A stretch of 64,000 bases of DNA from Gammaproteobacteria bacterium. Its GTDB lineage: Bacteria > Pseudomonadota > Gammaproteobacteria > Ga0077536. The stretch spans positions 1,664,001 to 1,728,000 of the forward strand of contig CAXXLL010000003.1 in the NCBI GenBank assembly GCA_963662545.2, read 5' to 3'. Positions 3,652-43,990 of the stretch are shown here, piece after piece. Under the pieces are notes generated by a model. It was not told where the DNA came from and did no database searches. It saw nothing but the letters and a program-made list of their open reading frames with translations. The position numbers and the translations under genes are program-made. Numbering within the stretch: the stretch's first letter is position 1; each line of letters opens with the position of its first letter.

Positions 3652-5724
3652 ATGCCGATGGCGCGTTTTCTCATGCTTGGTCGGCGGGTTATCCAGTGCC
3701 CGCGAAGATCTTATTTGCTCGTCGCCACGGCAGCTATTGCACTCTTTTTCCAGCCGGTCCCGGCGGCTGGGAAAACGCCCGTAAAGAACGATCCGCGCGT
3801 ACTGCGCGTATTGAAACTCAAGCACCACGAAATCAACCACCCGCATCGCGATACCAACGGTGAGTTCCGCATGCTCACCGATTTTGCGCGCCGGCAGGGT
3901 ATGACCATCATGTGGTTGGACGCGTATCAACCCAGCGAACTTCATAGCCGGCTGCTAAAGGGCGAAGGCGATGTCGTGGTCGCCGATCTGCCGCCGTCAC
4001 TGATCGTTGATCCGCACCTAAGCGCGAGTGTCCCGATGGGTGAATACCGTTATTCGGTGATCGGCCGCCACGGTATCGCCGCGAGCCACCCCGGAGAACT
4101 CGGCGGTTACCGGGTGGCCGTGCCGCTGGCGTCACCCTTGTGGCCCTATTTCAATCGGCTACAAAGTCGCGTGCCCGACATCAGCATCGTCGTCCTGCCC
4201 GTCGATACCTCCCGTGACACGATACTGAAAGCTACGTCGGACGGTGATTACGATATCGCCGTGATCCCCCAGCGACCCGACGAAGATCCGCTCGAAAATC
4301 TACCCGGGCTCAAGACGCTATTCGAATTGTCCGATCTCAGATCGGTGAGCTGGTATTTCCGCAAGAAAGGAGGCCGGCTCAGGGACGACGTCAACCGATA
4401 CCTGCAACGGTTTCATGCTTCGTTTCTCGCTCCGCGCGCAGTACTCGGCGATCTGGACGACATCAAACGGCGCCGTGTGCTACGCGTCATTACGAGGGTC
4501 GATCCGCAAAATTATTTTCTGAGGGGCGGCCAACCCGTCGGCTTCGAATACGAACTGGTCCGCCTTTTTACCCGAGAGCGTGGACTCAGCGTCGAGTTTC
4601 TCGTGGGCGAAACGGATCAGCAGATATTGAATTGGCTGCGCACGGGCGCTGGCGACGTCATCACGACACGGATCAACGCACGCGACGTCCGAATCGATCC
4701 GGCGCTCGAACAATCGCGCGATTATTTTCATTCCGCTTCCGTCATCATCAGCCGTCGCGGCAACGATATATCGCGCCCTGAACACCTGCATGGCAAACGA
4801 GTCGCGGTGCTGGGAAGTACGGTCCACCATCGAGCACTGGGAGAACTCGTAGCTGCCGGAACGGCCATCGAACCCATAATCATCAGCCCTGATACGCCAT
4901 TGGATAGCATCATCGATCAGCTGGAGAATTGGGTTATCGATGCCGCGATCGTCGATGCCTATGCGGTCGACGACATACGCGACGGACATCCGCTGATTCA
5001 AGCGGGTGCTTCATTGCCCGTGCAGTTTAAATACGCATGGACCGTGCGTACGCACGATACGAATTTACGCGCCGCGGTCGACGATCTTTTGCGCGATCAA
5101 TTTCGCATGGAGACTTAGAACGTGCTGGGACGGCGATACTTCGGCCGCTCGCGCTACACTCAATTTTCACACCTCGGGCGTCTTTCGCCGTATGACGACC
5201 TGGTTCAGCGGTACGCGGATACCTACGATTTCGACTGGCGATTAATCGTCGCGCAAATGTACCAGGAGAGTCATTTCGACCCCGGCGCGCAATCAGATGC
5301 CGGTGCTCTCGGTCTGATGCAGCTGCTTCCCGGCACCGCGCAAGACATGGGCGTCAGCGATCCGTTCGATCCGGAAGCAGGGATTCGAGGAGGCATCAAG
5401 TACCTGCGTTACTTATGGAACCGTTTCGATGATCAGGTTTCTCCGCGGGAGCGCACGTGGTTTGCGCTGGCCTCATACAATATCGGGTTCAATCGAATCG
5501 ACCTGGCGCGACGTCGAGCCCAAGAGCAAGCCTTGGATCCGAATCTTTGGTTCGGGCACGTCGAGCAGGCGATGCGCACGATGTCGAACGACGACAGGCC
5601 GTGCCGATGCGGCCAGACCGTCGTCTACGTTCGGGCTATACGCTCGCTCTACAATACCTATCATCGCCTGCGCGAGACATTGACCGCGGGCCTGACTTCG
5701 ATAACGCACGCTCCGACAATTTGA
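3652..5724 (+). pseudogene. MltF-like lytic transglycosylase (tandem substrate-binding domains + SLT) split by an in-frame TAG at 5116-5118
   Basis: ORFs 3652-5118 and 5122-5724 share one frame (ATG GAG ACT TAG AAC GTG); SLT motifs YQESHFDP, GLMQL and ASYN lie in the second part. Confidence 0.75.
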
Positions 5725-36578: not shown

Positions 36579-36751
36579 CCTGCTGTTTCGGACCCGTTAT
36601 ACTTTGGAAAAACGCCTTGATCGTGATTGGCGGTCGGTGAGCGGCGCGCAATCTTAAACGCAGCCTGATGAAATTGCACCCGCACTGTTTTTCTTGAACC
36701 GTACCTTACCAAGGCGTGCCAGCGCACCGACGATCCAGACTGCCCGAGTTT

Positions 36752-37465
36752 ATGGACGCAAAAACGATTCAAATTGGAGACCCGGAGCTTTACATCAACC
36801 GGAAATTGAGCCAACTCCAATTCAACCGACGCGTGCTCGCCCAGGCGATGGACGAATCGAATCCCTTGTTAGAACGGGTGAAGTTCCTGTGCATCGCGAG
36901 CAGCAATCTGGACGAGTTCTTCGAAATCCGTGTGGCCGGACTCAAACAGCAGGTCGCGTTCGGCTCCTTACAGAGCGGCCCTGACCAGATAGTCCCGGTG
37001 GAGCAGCTCAAGGCCATCAGCGCCGGCACGCACGAATTGGTCGACGAACAATACCGTATCCTCAATGAAGAACTCCTGCCGCAGCTCTCGAAAGAGGACA
37101 TTCATTTCCTCAAACGCGGGGAATGGAATGTGCGGCAGGCGGCATGGGTGCGGCGGTTTTTCAATCGTGAATTGCTGCCCGTCTTGAGTCCCATCGGGCT
37201 TGATCCTTCACACCCGTTTCCGCGAATTCTCAACAAGAGCCTCAACTTTCTCGTGTCGTTAGAAGGCACCGACGCCTTCGGACGAGACAGCGTGATCGCC
37301 ATCGTACAGGCGCCGCGATCGCTGCCACGCATCATCAATGTGCCCGACGGTTACGGTAGTGGGCCCTATGAGTTCGTCTTCCTGTCATCGATCATCCACG
37401 CGCACGTCAATGATATTTTCCCAGGCATGGAGGTCACCGGCTGCTATCAGTTCCGGGTGACCTGA
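36752..37465 (+). pseudogene. ppk1: Polyphosphate kinase 1, N-terminal third only
   Basis: YINRKLSQLQFNRRVL, PLLER, SNLDEFFEIRV, HPFP, CYQFRVT then stop; catalytic C-terminal domains absent. Confidence 0.9.
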
Positions 37466-37631
37466 AGGCGGCGAACTCGAGATCTGGTACGGGGGTACGC
37501 CCAAAATAGTCCCCAGGTTGCAGGGCATGCTCACTGCGTTCCCGAGCTACACGATGCACCGCGTCACGCCCGTTACCCGGGGTGTACGGAAGGCGCTCGT
37601 GGCCTGGGTCAACGGCCCGGATTTTCGCTAG
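37464..37631 (+). pseudogene. C-terminal fragment of a 2OG-Fe(II) oxygenase (prolyl-hydroxylase-like); not in the ORF track
   Basis: Manual translation EGGELEIWYGGTPKIVPRLQGMLTAFPSYTMHRVTPVTRGVRKALVAWVNGPDFR*: distal His and 2OG-binding Arg present, HxD half missing. Confidence 0.85.
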
Positions 37632-37737
37632 CGTGAATTTCTGTTACGTGCCCTATCGTTCGGCCGTGGCTTAAGCTACATTCGCACCGGGCGCTTGCCG
37701 AAATCACATTCGCCCCTTGTTGCAATGAAAGTTCCCT

Positions 37738-40731
37738 ATGCTGGCCGCCGCCGTTGGCGTCCTCTGGACACGGAGCCCGGACGAGCTGACGAAGGCGCCC
37801 GCAAAAGTGGTGGACGCGGGAACGCGGGCGTTCCAGAAAAGCCTCAAGGATACCTACGACTCCGAAGAGCTCCTGTTCAACCTGCTGCCGCGGCTGCAGA
37901 AGCTGGCCGACGGCACGGCCAACCTCGCGATCCCCGATTACAAGAACGGCAAGCTGTTCGCGGCGCAGGTCACCGTGCGCGATCTCGCGAACAGCTCGGC
38001 CGCAGTGGACGCGATTGACTCTGTCGGTGTCCGCTCGGCGGCGTGGTCCGCGGTGGAGCGGGACGAGACGCTGGCACGAGAGCGCCTGGCAATCTGGCAA
38101 CCCTACCTGAACCAGGTGCGCTACTTCGAGCACGCGAAGTTCTACTTCATAGACGCCCGCTTCGCGGATGAGACACGCACGCGCTGGAACGCAGAGTTGG
38201 GCTTTTCAGGTCTCGCCCGCATGCGGAGCGGCGCCTCGCAGTCGATCAAAGCGGTGATCGAGACGGAATGGGAGCGTGCGGCCGTGATCGAAGACGACCC
38301 TTACGGCGGCTGGCAGATCGACCGCTGGATTACCGGCAGCTTCACCACGATCGAGGCCCGGGAGCCCGTTTTCACCGAGGTGCTCGATGTCGCCATCCCG
38401 GATCCGGATACCCGGGCAAGCCTGCGCGACTCTCAACACGAGCGCATGGTGCTCCGCTACATCGCGGATGAATCCTACGCGCCCAATAAGCTGTTTCGCC
38501 CGCCCGCCTGGGACCGGCATCCCGGGCTCGCAGTCGTCGACATCGACCGCGACGGTTTTGACGACGTCTACACGATGGCCCGCCGGGGCAAGAACAAGTT
38601 CCTGCGCAACCGCGGCGACGGCACGTTCGAGGAGATCGCAGCCGAGCTCGGGCTGGACATCGCCGATTACACATCGAGCGCCTTGTTTGCCGATTTTGAC
38701 AACGACGGCGACGCCGACGTGTTCATCGGACGCACTCTGCAGCCGTCCCAATACCTCATGAACGAGGGCGGACGCTTCGTGGCGCGCTCCGATACCCACG
38801 TCGACGGACGCATGCCACATTTCGTGTCATCGATTTCCGCGGTCGATTACGACGGTGACGGTCTGCTCGATATCTACCTCGCCACTTACGCGTCGCAGAG
38901 CCTGGGCAAAATCAAGAACAACCTGAGCCGCTTCATGCACCGCGAGGACGTCCTACGCCACGATGAACTGCGCATGGCCGACGACTTCGAGAGCTTCGTC
39001 CATGCCTCCGGCCCCCCGAACGTACTACTCAGAAACGTCGGGGACGGGCGCTTCGTCGAGGTGATGGACACGCCGCTCAGAGTATTCAAAAACTCCTACC
39101 AGTGCACATGGGCGGACTACGACGACGACGGCGACATGGACGTCTACTGTGCGAACGATTTCGCGCCGGACAATCTGCTCCGGAACGAAGGCGGCGGCCG
39201 TTTCGTCGATGTCACCAACATGGCCGGTTTCGACGTGGTGGGCCTCGCCATGGGCGCCTCCTGGGGAGATTACGACCGCGACGGCCGGCTCGACTTGTAC
39301 GTCACCAACATGTACAGCAAGGCCGGCTCGCGCATCGCGCGCAAGATCGAAGGCCTTGACCCGCGGTACGCGCAGACGGCGCTGGGGAACTTCCTGTATC
39401 GCAACGAAGGGGACAAGTTTCGCCGGGTGTCGGGCAGTGCCCCCCAGGCTATGCAGGTCGAGCGTGCAGGCTGGTCCTGGGGTAGCCAGTTCATCGATGT
39501 CGACAACGACGGGGACCTCGACATCTATGCGCTGAACGGCTTTTACTCGGCGCCGAAAGACGTTGCCCGTCCGGGTGATACCTGAAGCCGCTTCTGGCGC
39601 TCGGTGGTCCACCGGGTATCGAAGGTCAAGCAGAACCTGAATTACAACCGCTCGGGGCGGTTCGGCTACACCGACCACGCGTCGTGGCGGTATTCGTTGT
39701 CCGGCCGTGAGCGCAGCCACCTGTTCGTGAACGAAGACGGCCGGCGGTTCATCGATGTCTCGGGCATCTCAGGCGCGGACCACCCGGGCGACGGGCGCGC
39801 GTTCGCGAAGATCGATTTCGATCGCGACGGCTGGACGGACCTCGCGGTGATGAACGCGAATGCCCCGGCATTCACTTTGTACCGGAACGAAATCGGGCGA
39901 CGCAGCATCGGAACGGGTGCGGACAATGAAGTGATAGCGGTACGGCTGGCCGGGGGCAACCGCAGCGCGCATCCCGCCACGGACGCGAGTAACCGGGACG
40001 GCATCGGAGCGCGCTTCTGGGTGTCTTTCGAGAACGAGACGATCGTCAGGGAGTACCGTGCCGGCGAGGGCATGGCAGCCCAGAACAGCGCGACCCAGCT
40101 GATCGGCATCGGCCCGCGGCAGACTGTCCAAAGCCTCAAGGTCCGCTGGCCGTCGGGTACCGAGCAGACTGTCGCGGCCGTACCGGCGGGCACGCTGGTC
40201 ACCGTCTACGAGGACCCGGCGCACTCGCCCACGGGTGAAGCGTTCGTGTTCGAAACGTATCGCCGCTCGTCGCCGACGGACAACAAGCCGGTATCACCCC
40301 GGAATGAACTCGCATCGCTGCCGCGCTTCGCGCTACCTTCGGCCGCGTCACACGGGCCGAAGGGCCGCTTGCGACTCTATACCGCGACGGCGACATGGTG
40401 CCCGAACTGCAAGCGGGAACTGCCGCAGCTCGAGCGCCTGCGCGCGACGTTCACGGACGGCGAGCTCGCCATGTTCGGTGTACCCGTCGACGATACCGAA
40501 ACCAGGGAGATGTTCGAGGCCTATGTCGCCGAGCATCGGCCCGCCTACGACATGCTGATCGGGATCGCCCCGGAAGAACAGGCCACGATGCGCCAGACGC
40601 TGACCTCGCGACTCAAGTCCGAAGGGATACCCGCCACGCTGGTGACGGATGCCGAGGATCGCATCCTGCACGTTAGCTGGGGCGTGCCGAGCCTGTCGAC
40701 ACTGCACAAGCTGCTGGCTTTGAGCCGCTAG
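37738..40731 (+). CDS. CRTAC1-like FG-GAP repeat + ASPIC/UnbV + thioredoxin-like (WCPNC) protein with in-frame TGA at 39583-39585; candidate selenoprotein, ~997 aa
   Basis: ORFs 37738-39585 and 39604-40731 share one frame; DxDxDG repeats on both sides of the TGA; NRDGIGAR/VRWPSG ASPIC motifs; ATWCPNCKRELP. Confidence 0.75.
39591..39624 (+). promoter_or_regulatory. Putative bacterial SECIS hairpin
   Basis: CTTC-T-GG-C-GCTCGGTG-[GTC]-CACCGGGT-A-TC-GAAG; apical loop GU begins 22 nt after the TGA. Confidence 0.6.
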
Positions 40732-41000: not shown

Positions 41001-42221
41001 ATGATTCGAATCGTAAGTTCATGCGCCCGGCCGCGCCGTCTCGACCACGCGACCGTGCGGGACATCGAGGACGAGGGCTCCCTGCTGACAGTGGCGGGTG
41101 GCGACCCGGTGTCCCTCAACGCGACAGCACGCCGCATCCTCGAACTGTGCGACGGCGCGCGCAGCGTAGCCGCGATCAGCGAGGCGCTCGCGGCAAATTT
41201 CGGCAGCTCGCGTGACGCGGTGCTGTCCGACGTGCGTGAGTCCGTGCGGCATCTCGCCGATATTCCCGCGCTGGAACTCAACGATGACACGTCGTGCGAG
41301 GCAGGGCCCGCCGATATCGACTGGTCGCGGATAGCCGCGCCGCAGCCCGATCAGTACGACACCGAGGTGGTGCTTGACCTGATGGCGGACAAACTGCGGG
41401 GACGCTGGCTCTATTGTGGCGATTCCGGTGAGGACTGGTGGCAGCCCGATGGCCGCATTAAGCTCGGCGACGGCCGCGTCGACGTCGGTTACTGTTATAA
41501 CGGACCGTGCGAGGACTCTTTGCTGCGGCTCCTGACGAACGCGCCGCTCGATCACCCGAATATCGCGGCCGCCGAGGAATTCCTGCACGCCTGGCCGGTC
41601 GCGGCCGAGCAGTTCGGCCGTTTGATGCGCTGCCTGCATCCGGTGATCGACCCGCACCGCCCCAGCGATGAGCGCGCCTTCCTGGTCGGCAGCAACTCGC
41701 ATTCCGTGAATCACCGGGCGATGTTCGGCACGTTGTATTCGACCATTAACTGCCCGCTGGAGCTCGCGAACAATTGCATTCACGAAATGGCCCATCAGAA
41801 GCTCTTCGCGCTGGGCATCTACAAGGAGTCGAGTACGGCGCTCATTACCAATGACCCGCAGGAAATGTACGCGAGTCCGGTGATCGTCGATCGACCGCGA
41901 CCGATGACGGCGGTGATCCACGGTGTTTACGTGTTCTGCTACGTCGCGCAACTCGAATTGCACGTACTGGACACGAACCTGCTTAACGGCGAGCGACGCG
42001 ACATGCTGCGCAAGCGGCTGTCGAAGGACCTGGGGCGTCTGCATACCGGGGTGCGGGAAATCGTCGATAACGTGCGCAGCGACGCCTGTGGCACGGCGTT
42101 TCTCGGCGGCTTGTACCGTTGGATAGACCAGCTGCTGAAGGACGGTCGTGCCCGCCTCGGAATGCAGTCGTTTCCCGCACCTAAGATCCGGCACCCGGCC
42201 GTGGCGGGGCAGGGCGCTTGA
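41001..42221 (+). CDS. PqqD/RRE domain fused to a HExxH-motif domain (aKG-HExxH peptide beta-hydroxylase-like)
   Basis: N-terminal LNATARRILELCDGARSVAAISEALAANF (PqqD-like); C-terminal CIHEMAHQKL and SP...PRPMTAVIHGVY. Confidence 0.8.
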   Translation: MIRIVSSCARPRRLDHATVRDIEDEGSLLTVAGGDPVSLNATARRILELCDGARSVAAISEALAANFGSSRDAVLSDVRESVRHLADIPALELNDDTSCEAGPADIDWSRIAAPQPDQYDTEVVLDLMADKLRGRWLYCGDSGEDWWQPDGRIKLGDGRVDVGYCYNGPCEDSLLRLLTNAPLDHPNIAAAEEFLHAWPVAAEQFGRLMRCLHPVIDPHRPSDERAFLVGSNSHSVNHRAMFGTLYSTINCPLELANNCIHEMAHQKLFALGIYKESSTALITNDPQEMYASPVIVDRPRPMTAVIHGVYVFCYVAQLELHVLDTNLLNGERRDMLRKRLSKDLGRLHTGVREIVDNVRSDACGTAFLGGLYRWIDQLLKDGRARLGMQSFPAPKIRHPAVAGQGA

Positions 42222-42838
42222 ACGTGGTAAAGCCTTCGTCGGAAACGGGCGTCCTCGGACCGTTTCACGTCAGGGAGGCGGCCGCCAAGCCCTTCGCGTA
42301 TTTTGTCGTGGATGACGTCCTCGAGTGCGCGCACGCCGACTCGCTGCTCGCGTGGATCGAGTCATGCCGGTGGTGGGAACTGGTCCACACCCAATTCTAT
42401 GATCAGTACGAGTTCATGGTGTGCGAAGGGAAACGCCGCATGGACCTGCCGAAGGAGTGCAAGCCGCTGTTCACGCAAGCGGCGCTCGGCGAACTGGCCG
42501 CGCTCGTCGGCGAGCATCTCGGGCTAGAGCGCTGCCTGATCTTGAGAGTCGTAGCGCATATGCTCAAGCCCGGCCAGGGGATCGGCATACACAACGACGA
42601 CAAAGCAAACGGGCCGCCGACATTCCGTTTCGTTCTACAGCTCAACCGCAGCTACGACGATCGGGACGGCGGGCAGCTGGGCCTGTTCGACGGCCACGAC
42701 CTCGACCGCGTGATCCACATCGCCCGCCCGTTGCACAATACGGGCTGCGCATTCGCCATTGGGTCGGCCTCGCAACATGCAGTCAGCGAAGTCCGTCGCG
42801 GGAACCGTTATACGTTGGTCTATACCTTTACGGGTTGA
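42218..42838 (+). CDS. 2OG-Fe(II) oxygenase resembling the cyclophane-RiPP-associated YhhC family
   Basis: FYDQYEF, AHMLKPGQGIGIHND, LQLNR, HAVSEV, RYTLVYTF (HxD...H...R). Confidence 0.8.
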   Translation: MNVVKPSSETGVLGPFHVREAAAKPFAYFVVDDVLECAHADSLLAWIESCRWWELVHTQFYDQYEFMVCEGKRRMDLPKECKPLFTQAALGELAALVGEHLGLERCLILRVVAHMLKPGQGIGIHNDDKANGPPTFRFVLQLNRSYDDRDGGQLGLFDGHDLDRVIHIARPLHNTGCAFAIGSASQHAVSEVRRGNRYTLVYTFTG

Positions 42839-42850
42839 AGCATCGGCGAG

Positions 42851-43990
42851 ATGAAGCGCAGTCACATCCGACGCGATGAAATACCGCAGCGCCTCTCCAG
42901 CGTCACCGGCTACGAACTCGCCAGCGAATTACTGCTCTACTGCAGCGATTCGCAGCGGGTCCACGTATTAAACGCGTCGGCGGCCGCCGTGTGGGATCTC
43001 TGTGACGGACAGCGCACGGTGCTCGAGATCAACCGTGAGCTGGCATCGGTGCTCCGGCGTTCGAATGCAGACCTGTTTCCTGACATTCAACTCGCGGTCA
43101 ACGAGCTGTTAAAAATGGAGATGATCGATATAGCACCGCCGCCGGTCAGCGACGCCCGCGAAGTGCTGATGGCGATGCGGGCAGCGCCGGCGATGGCGAT
43201 GGCGATCGGATTCAACGGTACGGCAGTGACTATCCATACCGAAGTCGAGGGCGTCAGGGCGCACCTGTCCGGCCGGTTCGGAAGGCTGGTCGCATCGGGC
43301 GGCGAAGCGAACGTCGCCGACTTCTACGTGCAAGCTTCGGGGGATCGCTATCTGTTGTGCGGAGAGTCCGGCGAAACACGTTACCTGGGTGGCCTAGGCG
43401 ACGTCCTGCAGGAACTCGAAATGGTGCTGGTTCAAACGCTCGTGGACGCGAACCCGGATCTGTTATGGATGCACGCCGGCGCGGTTGCGGACGACGGCGG
43501 CGCGATCATGGTCGTCGGGCCGTCGGGGGCGGGCAAGAGCATGTTCATAACGGGACTGGCGCGTGAGTCGCGCGTCTATCTTTCCGATGACGTGCTGCCG
43601 GTACGCAAGGAAACCAGTGAAGCGCTGCCATTCCCACTGGCGCCGAGCGTGCGCCTCGCCGCCGGGCCCCGGCTGCCGGCGCACCGTATCCAGAACGTCG
43701 AACGGGAGTCCATCGCATTGAGTGACGACCAGATCGGGTGCGCGCCGTTTCGTCTCGCTGCCGTTTTGCTACCGATATTCGACGCTGGGAAATCGGCGCA
43801 GATCCGCGAACCCAGCCCATCGCAGGTCGCCCGCGTGCTGATTGAGAACAGTCTCAACATAGCGCAGCACCGGGAACGGGCCGTCGCCTATCTGTGCGAA
43901 CTCGCGAACACCGTTCCGGCGCTCGAGTTGCGCTACGGTGACCGCGCCGCAGCGCTCGAGCTCGCGGCGCGCGCACTTCCTTTGAGCTGA
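42851..43990 (+). CDS. PqqD/RRE domain fused to an HPr-kinase-like P-loop kinase
   Basis: HVLNASAAAVWDLCDGQRTV (PqqD-like); MHAGAV, GPSGAGKS, YLSDD. Confidence 0.82.
   Translation: MKRSHIRRDEIPQRLSSVTGYELASELLLYCSDSQRVHVLNASAAAVWDLCDGQRTVLEINRELASVLRRSNADLFPDIQLAVNELLKMEMIDIAPPPVSDAREVLMAMRAAPAMAMAIGFNGTAVTIHTEVEGVRAHLSGRFGRLVASGGEANVADFYVQASGDRYLLCGESGETRYLGGLGDVLQELEMVLVQTLVDANPDLLWMHAGAVADDGGAIMVVGPSGAGKSMFITGLARESRVYLSDDVLPVRKETSEALPFPLAPSVRLAAGPRLPAHRIQNVERESIALSDDQIGCAPFRLAAVLLPIFDAGKSAQIREPSPSQVARVLIENSLNIAQHRERAVAYLCELANTVPALELRYGDRAAALELAARALPLS

Follow-up and report, generated by a model that had tools for sequence, protein, structure and literature searches.

A stretch of 64,000 nucleotides from a gammaproteobacterial genome (assembly GCA_963662545.2, contig CAXXLL010000003.1, positions 1,664,001 to 1,728,000), referred to below as the window, carries a gene with FG-GAP, UnbV_ASPIC and thioredoxin-like domains that contains one in-frame TGA, at 39583-39585. 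Comparative sequence evidence makes it highly probable that this UGA is decoded as selenocysteine (Sec), yielding a single polypeptide of about 997 residues with Sec at residue 616 (U616). Decoding would rely on the SelA, SelB, SelC and SelD of the genome itself, together with a hairpin within the coding region that follows the UGA closely on its 3' side, of the type known as a selenocysteine insertion sequence (SECIS). The upstream open reading frame (ORF), at 37738..39585 on the forward strand, comprises 615 codons followed by the TGA, and the same frame remains open past it until a TAG at 40729-40731, the joined product being 997 residues long and the TGA corresponding to residue 616; the peptide across the site reads ...PKDVARPGDT[U]SRFWRSVV.... 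An earlier, sequence-only reading of this DNA had treated the two ORFs as one frame broken only by the TGA at 39583-39585, which the ORF list and the translation bear out, and its proposal of a protein of about 997 residues with Sec at residue 616 is now supported by the conservation of the TGA, the hairpin and the presence of the Sec machinery. The features of the gene are the following:

37738..39582, + strand: 5' coding part, up to the Sec codon (residues 1-615), with a short hydrophobic N-terminus, an N-terminal helix and beta-sheet domain, and FG-GAP blades
39583..39585, + strand: UGA very probably read as selenocysteine, residue 616, in the first turn of the predicted helix 615-627 (comparative evidence and AlphaFold2 model)
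39586..40731, + strand: coding part 3' of the Sec codon, comprising the conserved S-x-x-W-R-x-V-V, the final blade of the propeller, UnbV_ASPIC and the thioredoxin-like domain; TAG at 40729-40731
39599..39617, + strand: putative SECIS-type hairpin core of 8 bp, with apical loop GUC at 39607-39609 and a bulged extension over 39592-39624
40000..40200, + strand: UnbV_ASPIC domain, residues 755-821 (Pfam)
40321..40728, + strand: TlpA/ResA-like thioredoxin-fold domain, about residues 862-997 (Pfam, profile and AlphaFold2 model)
40399..40410, + strand: CxxC motif C888-P-N-C891 of the thioredoxin-like domain (alignment)

The TGA is shared across a large family. A word-indexed protein search with residues 520-760 as query listed 120 proteins, which were then compared by BLAST; 43 of them (557-744 residues) stop at exactly the position-616 column, ending in ...D-x, and the 77 that span the position have 69 Glu, 4 Asp, 1 Cys (P0002), 1 Ser, 1 Ala and 1 gap. 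An exhaustive phmmer search was performed with the 615-residue N-terminal part, and the best 150 representatives of clusters at 50% identity were examined: 113 stop at the site under a strict criterion, a further 10 terminate in D-x, seven span the site (3 Glu, 3 Ser, 1 Gly), and the remainder are giant repeat proteins or fragments. At the DNA level, an in-frame stop within the motif D-x-stop-[S/T]-x-x-W-R-x-V-V was found at 16 of 80 loci from species-representative genomes and at 11 of 80 loci from metagenomes, the latter with 12 sites. All 29 sites (these 28 and that of the window) are TGA, never TAA or TAG, and the frame is open for 200-820 codons 3' of each. Two chance matches to a loosened pattern, L163 (a TGA in an unrelated context) and L165 (a TAA), were dropped. 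The named genomes bearing the TGA belong to the Gemmatimonadota, Verrucomicrobiota, Planctomycetota and Acidobacteriota (16 genes), the others being metagenomic. The gene distribution is patchy, and 40 other genomes searched as close relatives gave one match only, weak and without a stop.

Sec and non-Sec forms alike conserve S617, W620 and R621, the codons varying synonymously, and a near-invariant Asp, D614, lies two residues before Sec. Among the 120 listed proteins, the homologues without the TGA come from single uninterrupted genes. Several outcomes had been named in the sequence-only reading as decisive, and they fall on the side of decoding: the TGA is not private to this genome (29 sites, with 43/120 and 113/150 proteins ending there), protein conservation is present on either side of it (S617, W620, R621 and D693-G698), the homologues are not always two genes, those without the TGA being continuous, and no protein spanning residue 616 has Trp or Arg there. 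Two further observations concern the architecture of the family. One metagenome contig, L103, harbors two tandem paralogues (at nt 1228 and 4388), each with its own in-frame TGA and hairpin; and in L105, L106, L110 and L130, which form a Sec subtype with the sequence NGYxT...GDL-U-SFFWRQVV, the thioredoxin domain is followed by an extension of 200-300 residues that by eye resembles tetratricopeptide repeats.

In the joined protein, Pfam detects FG-GAP_3 (144 bits, in six stretches), FG-GAP (76 bits) and UnbV_ASPIC (50 bits, residues 755-821), all above their cut-offs, and this order of an FG-GAP propeller followed by UnbV_ASPIC is the one that defines the CRTAC1 / ASPIC-UnbV family. A DxDxDG repeat (D693, D695, D697, G698) sits 3' of the TGA and is invariant in the homologue alignment A3, and a blade so conserved beyond the TGA means that the stop cuts the propeller; the earlier suggestion that FG-GAP repeats continue on both sides of the stop is borne out by Pfam and by this repeat. 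Residues 876-985 match AhpC-TSA, Redoxin and Thioredoxin_8, the AhpC-TSA match being weak (26.6 bits against a cut-off of 26). The C-terminal domain contains the motif WCPNC at residues 887-891 (C888, C891), and its profile matches in the PDB include TlpA 1jfu (3.9e-15), ResA and DsbE/CcmG; the domain, and only this part of the protein, thus has the WCxxC thioredoxin fold of the TlpA/ResA/CcmG type, as had been predicted from the sequence. Since the NCBIfam TlpA and ResA models score far under their cut-offs on this domain, it is a relative rather than an equivalog of those proteins. An AlphaFold2 model built from a 47-row alignment (predicted local distance difference test 87.2, predicted template modelling score 0.88) predicts a long helix plus beta-sheet domain (27-245), the propeller, a beta-sandwich bearing UnbV_ASPIC, and a thioredoxin fold (878-996), and would place U616 where helix 615-627 makes its first turn, following strand 595-600. 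The closest solved structure is murine CRTAC1 (PDB 9etn), both by profile (E 2.7e-29) and by Foldseek (E 7.6e-26, template modelling score 0.73 on the target); the profile alignment with 9etn passes over the region of residue 616.

The machinery for Sec decoding, whose presence the sequence-only reading had asked for, was found in the same genome: selD, selB, selA and the tRNA for Sec all score over curated cut-offs and all lie on contig 2. The other TGA-bearing genomes have selA in 16 of 16 cases, that is 17 of 17 with the genome of the window. For comparison, 50 of the 64 loci without the TGA were searched for selA; they lie in 49 genomes, 32 of which have it (Fisher p = 0.0066 for the contrast with 16/16). 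The selD match (G000:C2:1272288-1273199) is located within an open frame of 761 residues and the family model has 311 positions, from which SelD appears to be fused to another domain.

For the window, RNAfold predicts an 8-bp stem (39599-39606 with 39610-39617) and an apical loop GUC at 39607-39609 (UGA+24), extendable over 39592-39624, in agreement with the hairpin at 39591-39624, with GU in a small apical loop, that had been drawn earlier. A hairpin follows each of the 29 TGAs, its apical loop having a G-U inside the Val-Val codons, and the commonest loop is GGUCG at nucleotides 21-25, counted from the U of UGA. A hairpin shortly 3' of the UGA with a G(U) in a small apical loop is what characterizes a bacterial SECIS, the support added here by synonymous recoding being modest. 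The SECIS of Escherichia coli fdhF is a hairpin directly 3' of the UGA, in the coding sequence, with a G-U in a small apical loop; the family resembles it in the hairpin 3' of the UGA and in the loop, which is GGUCG in most members and GUC in the window, and differs from it in having at least four stem registers, set by the residue between R and V-V. When the 17 genes with the peptide W-R-Q-V-V were selected, 89.1% of cells were paired, against 22.7-69.7% with slid partners, and the covariation score was equalled by 2 of 500 shuffles. Pair 18-28, formed by base 3 of the Arg codon and base 1 of the codon after V-V, is kept in 17 of 17 genes as GU, AU, GC, CG or UA; its maintenance through five pair types indicates that a synonymous site tracks an amino-acid change. 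In the window the loop falls within the second of the two Val codons; the other gene with W-R-S-V-V, on L103, uses this register too, a G-C pair being replaced there by C-G in a compensatory change. The 8-bp stem of the window is reached in 3.2% of 1000 synonymous recodings. Over the 29 sequences, stem length compared with recodings gives a combined p of 0.0017, the rows being non-independent.

Several results weigh against Sec decoding, most of them on the side of the hairpin. One fixed register pairs only 70.7% of cells across all 29 sequences, with weak shuffle statistics, a poor fit that is due to the existence of at least four registers. The minimum free energy (MFE) for the window, -18.1 kcal/mol, is unremarkable (z = -0.12), 84 of 200 shuffles folding at least as well. 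Relative to synonymous recodings, stem length reaches p < 0.05 in only 4 of 29 sequences (median p 0.26), and the mean z of the MFE is only -0.78, although negative in 26 of 29. Much of the stem pairing is, as judged from these comparisons, carried by the conserved peptide; a peptide-encoded stem is expected where a bacterial SECIS overlaps the coding sequence. Cys homologues are almost absent, with one (P0002) among the 77 spanning proteins of the 120 listed and none among the seven of the best 150 representatives; the alternation between Cys and TGA that the sequence-only reading had looked for is therefore seen in that one protein and hardly beyond it, the usual replacement being Glu. The presence of selA is common in these phyla regardless of the TGA (32/49), and this high baseline makes the contrast between TGA and selA supportive, not strong. 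Non-Sec genes with WRQVV, used as a control, gave five usable loci and one spurious, too few to count for or against; among them the Glu form L029 still folds a similar hairpin. In L029, at nt 4234, the hairpin follows a GAG codon and may be a relic of a lost SECIS. An Rfam scan of 39540-39700 (E <= 10) returned two chance matches only and no fitting model.

Two other readings of the TGA itself were considered. It could be a true stop, with either two polypeptides, the second re-initiated at the GTG of the V-V codons, or a broken gene; gene callers do split the gene at the TGA throughout, and a GTG occurs 7 codons after it (ORF 39604..), but this reading is very improbable, given that 29 of 29 sites are TGA, that the seven codons from TGA to GTG vary synonymously but keep their peptide, which aligns with continuous non-Sec homologues, that the break falls within a propeller, and that selA is found in 17 of 17 TGA-bearing genomes. 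Still less credible is a reading of the UGA without selenium, through near-cognate decoding by a tRNA for Trp, Cys or Arg or through an altered genetic code, which nothing specific favors beyond the low-level UGA read-through that occurs in bacteria, and which is opposed by the ordinary use of TGA as a stop in 19 of the 37 long frames of the window (hence no reassignment), by the lack of any homologue with Trp or Arg at the site, and by the conserved hairpin and complete Sec machinery that it leaves unexplained.

No assembly error accounts for the TGA at 39583-39585. Across 39000-40200 the codon is unchanged in contigs from two runs, which belong to two studies and one of which may be the source of the assembly, and a contig from a sponge metagenome covers 39580-39946 without a difference; such support from sequence data was another point on which the sequence-only reading had made its proposal depend. 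A protein from a sibling assembly (P0004) differs at two of the 615 residues before the TGA and ends at the same place. The stretch 39000-40200 is present in 20 runs from nine studies, including sponge and seawater metagenomes, and the organism is probably marine and possibly sponge-associated. A metatranscriptome contig of 152 nt lies on 39870-40021; it does not bridge the TGA and may come from DNA carry-over, and was not counted as expression.

The role of U616 was approached through its covariation with the CxxC motif in 61 aligned family members. All 20 Sec/Cys forms possessing the thioredoxin-like domain retain the motif, versus 6 of 34 non-Sec forms with the domain, the rest of these non-Sec forms showing SxxW, SxxS, SxxC and similar sequences, and C888 belongs to a set of just nine columns that distinguish the Sec/Cys forms from the others. 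Three Sec forms (L045, L091 and L123) have no thioredoxin-like domain and carry instead a Cys two residues after Sec (UxC). Judging from these sequence patterns, the selenol would be paired with a resolving thiol, located close to it or provided by the fused domain. A relay between Sec and CxxC is the best mechanistic reading, in which our confidence is moderate: U616 would be a redox-active residue acting on an extracytoplasmic substrate, the CxxC of the TlpA-like domain fused to it would resolve the oxidised U616, and this domain would then draw its reducing power from the membrane, as other TlpA/ResA/CcmG-type systems do. Lineages with Glu, Ser or Ala in place of Sec would mostly have let the CxxC decay. 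The TlpA/ResA/CcmG-type systems and PilB, a fusion of thioredoxin (Trx) and methionine sulfoxide reductase (MsrA/B) domains, are the models for such re-reduction. That the protein might recycle Sec by its own thioredoxin domain had been raised from the sequence; the covariation of residue 616 with CxxC lends support to this idea, the relay itself being what we infer. A hydrophobic N-terminal anchor or signal peptide is apparent by eye in P0004, in P0002 and in the translated homologues of L024, L031 and L032, which fits an extracytoplasmic TlpA-type domain.

Three observations pull in the other direction. Both the domain and UxC are missing from the Sec form L076, which has a Cys five residues before Sec; six Glu forms keep CxxC; and the link between Sec and CxxC comes down to four independent pairs, about 3.3 of them in the same direction, for which a sign test is not significant. 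In a FastTree phylogeny few transitions are needed, Sec forms occur on both sides of the midpoint root, and the 30 rows of the Glu clade form a nested group whose sister, with support 99, is a Sec form. Such a topology suggests an ancestral Sec with several later losses, under midpoint rooting only, the root not being established. When the flanking frames of 27 Sec loci and the window were clustered, no common neighbour was found except FG-GAP paralogues.

The main alternative to the redox relay, and an unlikely one, is that U616 is a genuine Sec serving as a metal or metalloid ligand or as a sensor, that the Glu forms bind a hard cation, and that the TlpA-like domain keeps the selenol reduced. 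Residue 616 indeed alternates with typical cation ligands (69 Glu and 4 Asp versus 1 Cys), the almost invariant D614 is found two residues before it, and the scaffold is rich in DxDxDG calcium loops; TlpA is known to prepare the cysteines of copper sites. Opposed to a metal site are the covariation of CxxC with Sec, the presence of UxC, a typical redox arrangement, in forms without the thioredoxin domain, and the predicted location of U616 at the N-terminus of a helix in the AlphaFold2 model, helix N-termini being typical locations of redox-active residues.

The copy in the window is peculiar at its N-terminus, where one more feature is found:

37725..37737, + strand: what is left of the start codon used in the sibling strain (MKVP...); for lack of 41 nt that code for the anchor, it is not in frame with the body

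In P0004 the N-terminus reads MKVPFANTRDVIYLTVIA-MLAAAV..., and the window lacks the 41 nt that encode FANTRDVIYLTVIA, that is, most of the membrane anchor; because of this loss the MKVP start at 37725 is out of frame with the body. The ATG at 37738 can start the body, but only about 10 hydrophobic residues remain. With half of the anchor deleted relative to P0004, the copy in the window may be mislocalised or decaying, which tells against its working as proposed; the 41-nt difference itself may stem from the strain, from a fault in the assembly or from incipient decay. We regard it as improbable that, in a real family, this particular copy is being lost and is no longer exported or functional. 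The missing codons for FANTRDVIYLTVIA, the out-of-frame MKVP and a truncated polyphosphate kinase gene just upstream speak for such a loss, against which it can be said that the other 997 codons are intact, that upstream of the TGA this copy and P0004 disagree at only 2 of 615 residues, that the ATG at 37738 is usable as a start of the body, and that the 41-nt gap may reflect the strain or the assembly. The upstream ORF, at 36716-37465 (249 residues), has the N-terminal and part of the middle domain of polyphosphate kinase and looks like a truncated ppk. Between it and the selenoprotein gene, at about 37500-37631 on the + strand, a short frame without a start (...TMHRVTPVTRGVRKALVAW...) resembles by eye the C-terminus of a 2-oxoglutarate (2OG)-Fe(II) oxygenase and may be a gene remnant. 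Downstream, at 41001-43990, PqqD-like ORFs (41001-42221 and 42851-43990) lie on either side of a 2OG-Fe(II) oxygenase ORF (42218-42838), an arrangement that may represent a peptide-modification cluster.

Among known systems, the protein resembles CRTAC1 / ASPIC-UnbV members in its Pfam domains and in having 9etn as best PDB match by both profile and fold, and NCBI labels several Glu-type relatives 'CRTAC1 family protein'; it differs from CRTAC1 by the predicted Sec in a D-x-U-S-x-x-W-R motif and by the C-terminal TlpA-like CxxC domain. To our knowledge, no function is known for the bacterial CRTAC1/ASPIC-UnbV members. With the known TlpA-type thioredoxin-fold selenoproteins of bacteria it shares a SECIS-type element inside the coding sequence and a presumed extracytoplasmic thiol/selenol redox role. 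In those proteins Sec is part of a CxxC-type motif, whereas here the CxxC is kept and Sec would lie about 270 residues upstream, in the propeller. By analogy, Neisseria PilB (Trx-MsrA-MsrB), whose structures 2h30, 2jzr and 2fy6 are among the PDB profile matches of the thioredoxin domain, may be compared with it as a protein in which a periplasmic CxxC domain of the TlpA type is joined to a domain carrying a redox-active chalcogen. The thioredoxin domain of PilB recycles the fused Msr domains; the protein of the window has no Msr domain, its scaffold is a propeller, its residue would be Sec, and a relay can be proposed only by inference.

Bacterial selenoproteins have been catalogued by family, most being thioredoxin-fold or metal-cofactor enzymes that were found through Sec/Cys pairs. 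The propeller proteins, which are probably exported or anchored in the membrane, appear to constitute a large, widespread and undescribed selenoprotein family. Table 1 of a 2026 review (PMC13188914) comprises 119 prokaryotic selenoprotein families or subfamilies and has no FG-GAP, ASPIC, UnbV, CRTAC1 or propeller family among them, in line with the remark in the sequence-only reading that this is not a textbook selenoprotein family. The terms FG-GAP, ASPIC, UnbV and CRTAC1 are absent from the main texts of PMC13188914, PMC12013277 (deep-Sep) and PMC13326102 (BSepDB), the 111 families of BSepDB being listed in its supplement, outside the scope of this comparison. A literature search found no prokaryotic paper linking selenoprotein or selenocysteine to FG-GAP, ASPIC, UnbV, CRTAC1, VCBS or beta-propeller, and none of the NCBIfam selenoprotein models matches the protein at E <= 0.01. 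The NCBI-sourced records of the family end at the TGA, one of them being called, for example, 'FG-GAP repeat domain-containing protein'. According to the part of the deep-Sep article consulted (PMC12013277), present methods depend on Cys homologues; these being nearly absent here, the family would escape searches for Sec/Cys pairs, which may explain the gap in the catalogues.

Counted in clusters at 50% identity, the family has at least 113 members within the best 150 representatives, and it spans at least four named phyla, mostly of uncultured marine, soil and symbiont bacteria. It is unusual in that Sec would be carried on a beta-propeller scaffold and would alternate with Glu rather than with Cys. 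Gene callers split the gene in every shortened database record examined, and recognition of the Sec codon would correct the annotation of hundreds of split genes; it also warns that searches based on Cys homologues miss some selenoprotein families. It may be proposed, tentatively and with somewhat less than even confidence, that Sec is ancestral to this branch, whose members would be extracytoplasmic selenoenzymes on a new, non-thioredoxin scaffold, with Sec where a helix of the propeller begins and with a built-in TlpA-like recycling domain, the Glu-type CRTAC1 proteins being derived forms in which the redox chemistry was lost and the CxxC decayed. A redox-active site with a dedicated reductant domain would then provide a first functional handle on the bacterial CRTAC1/ASPIC-UnbV proteins.

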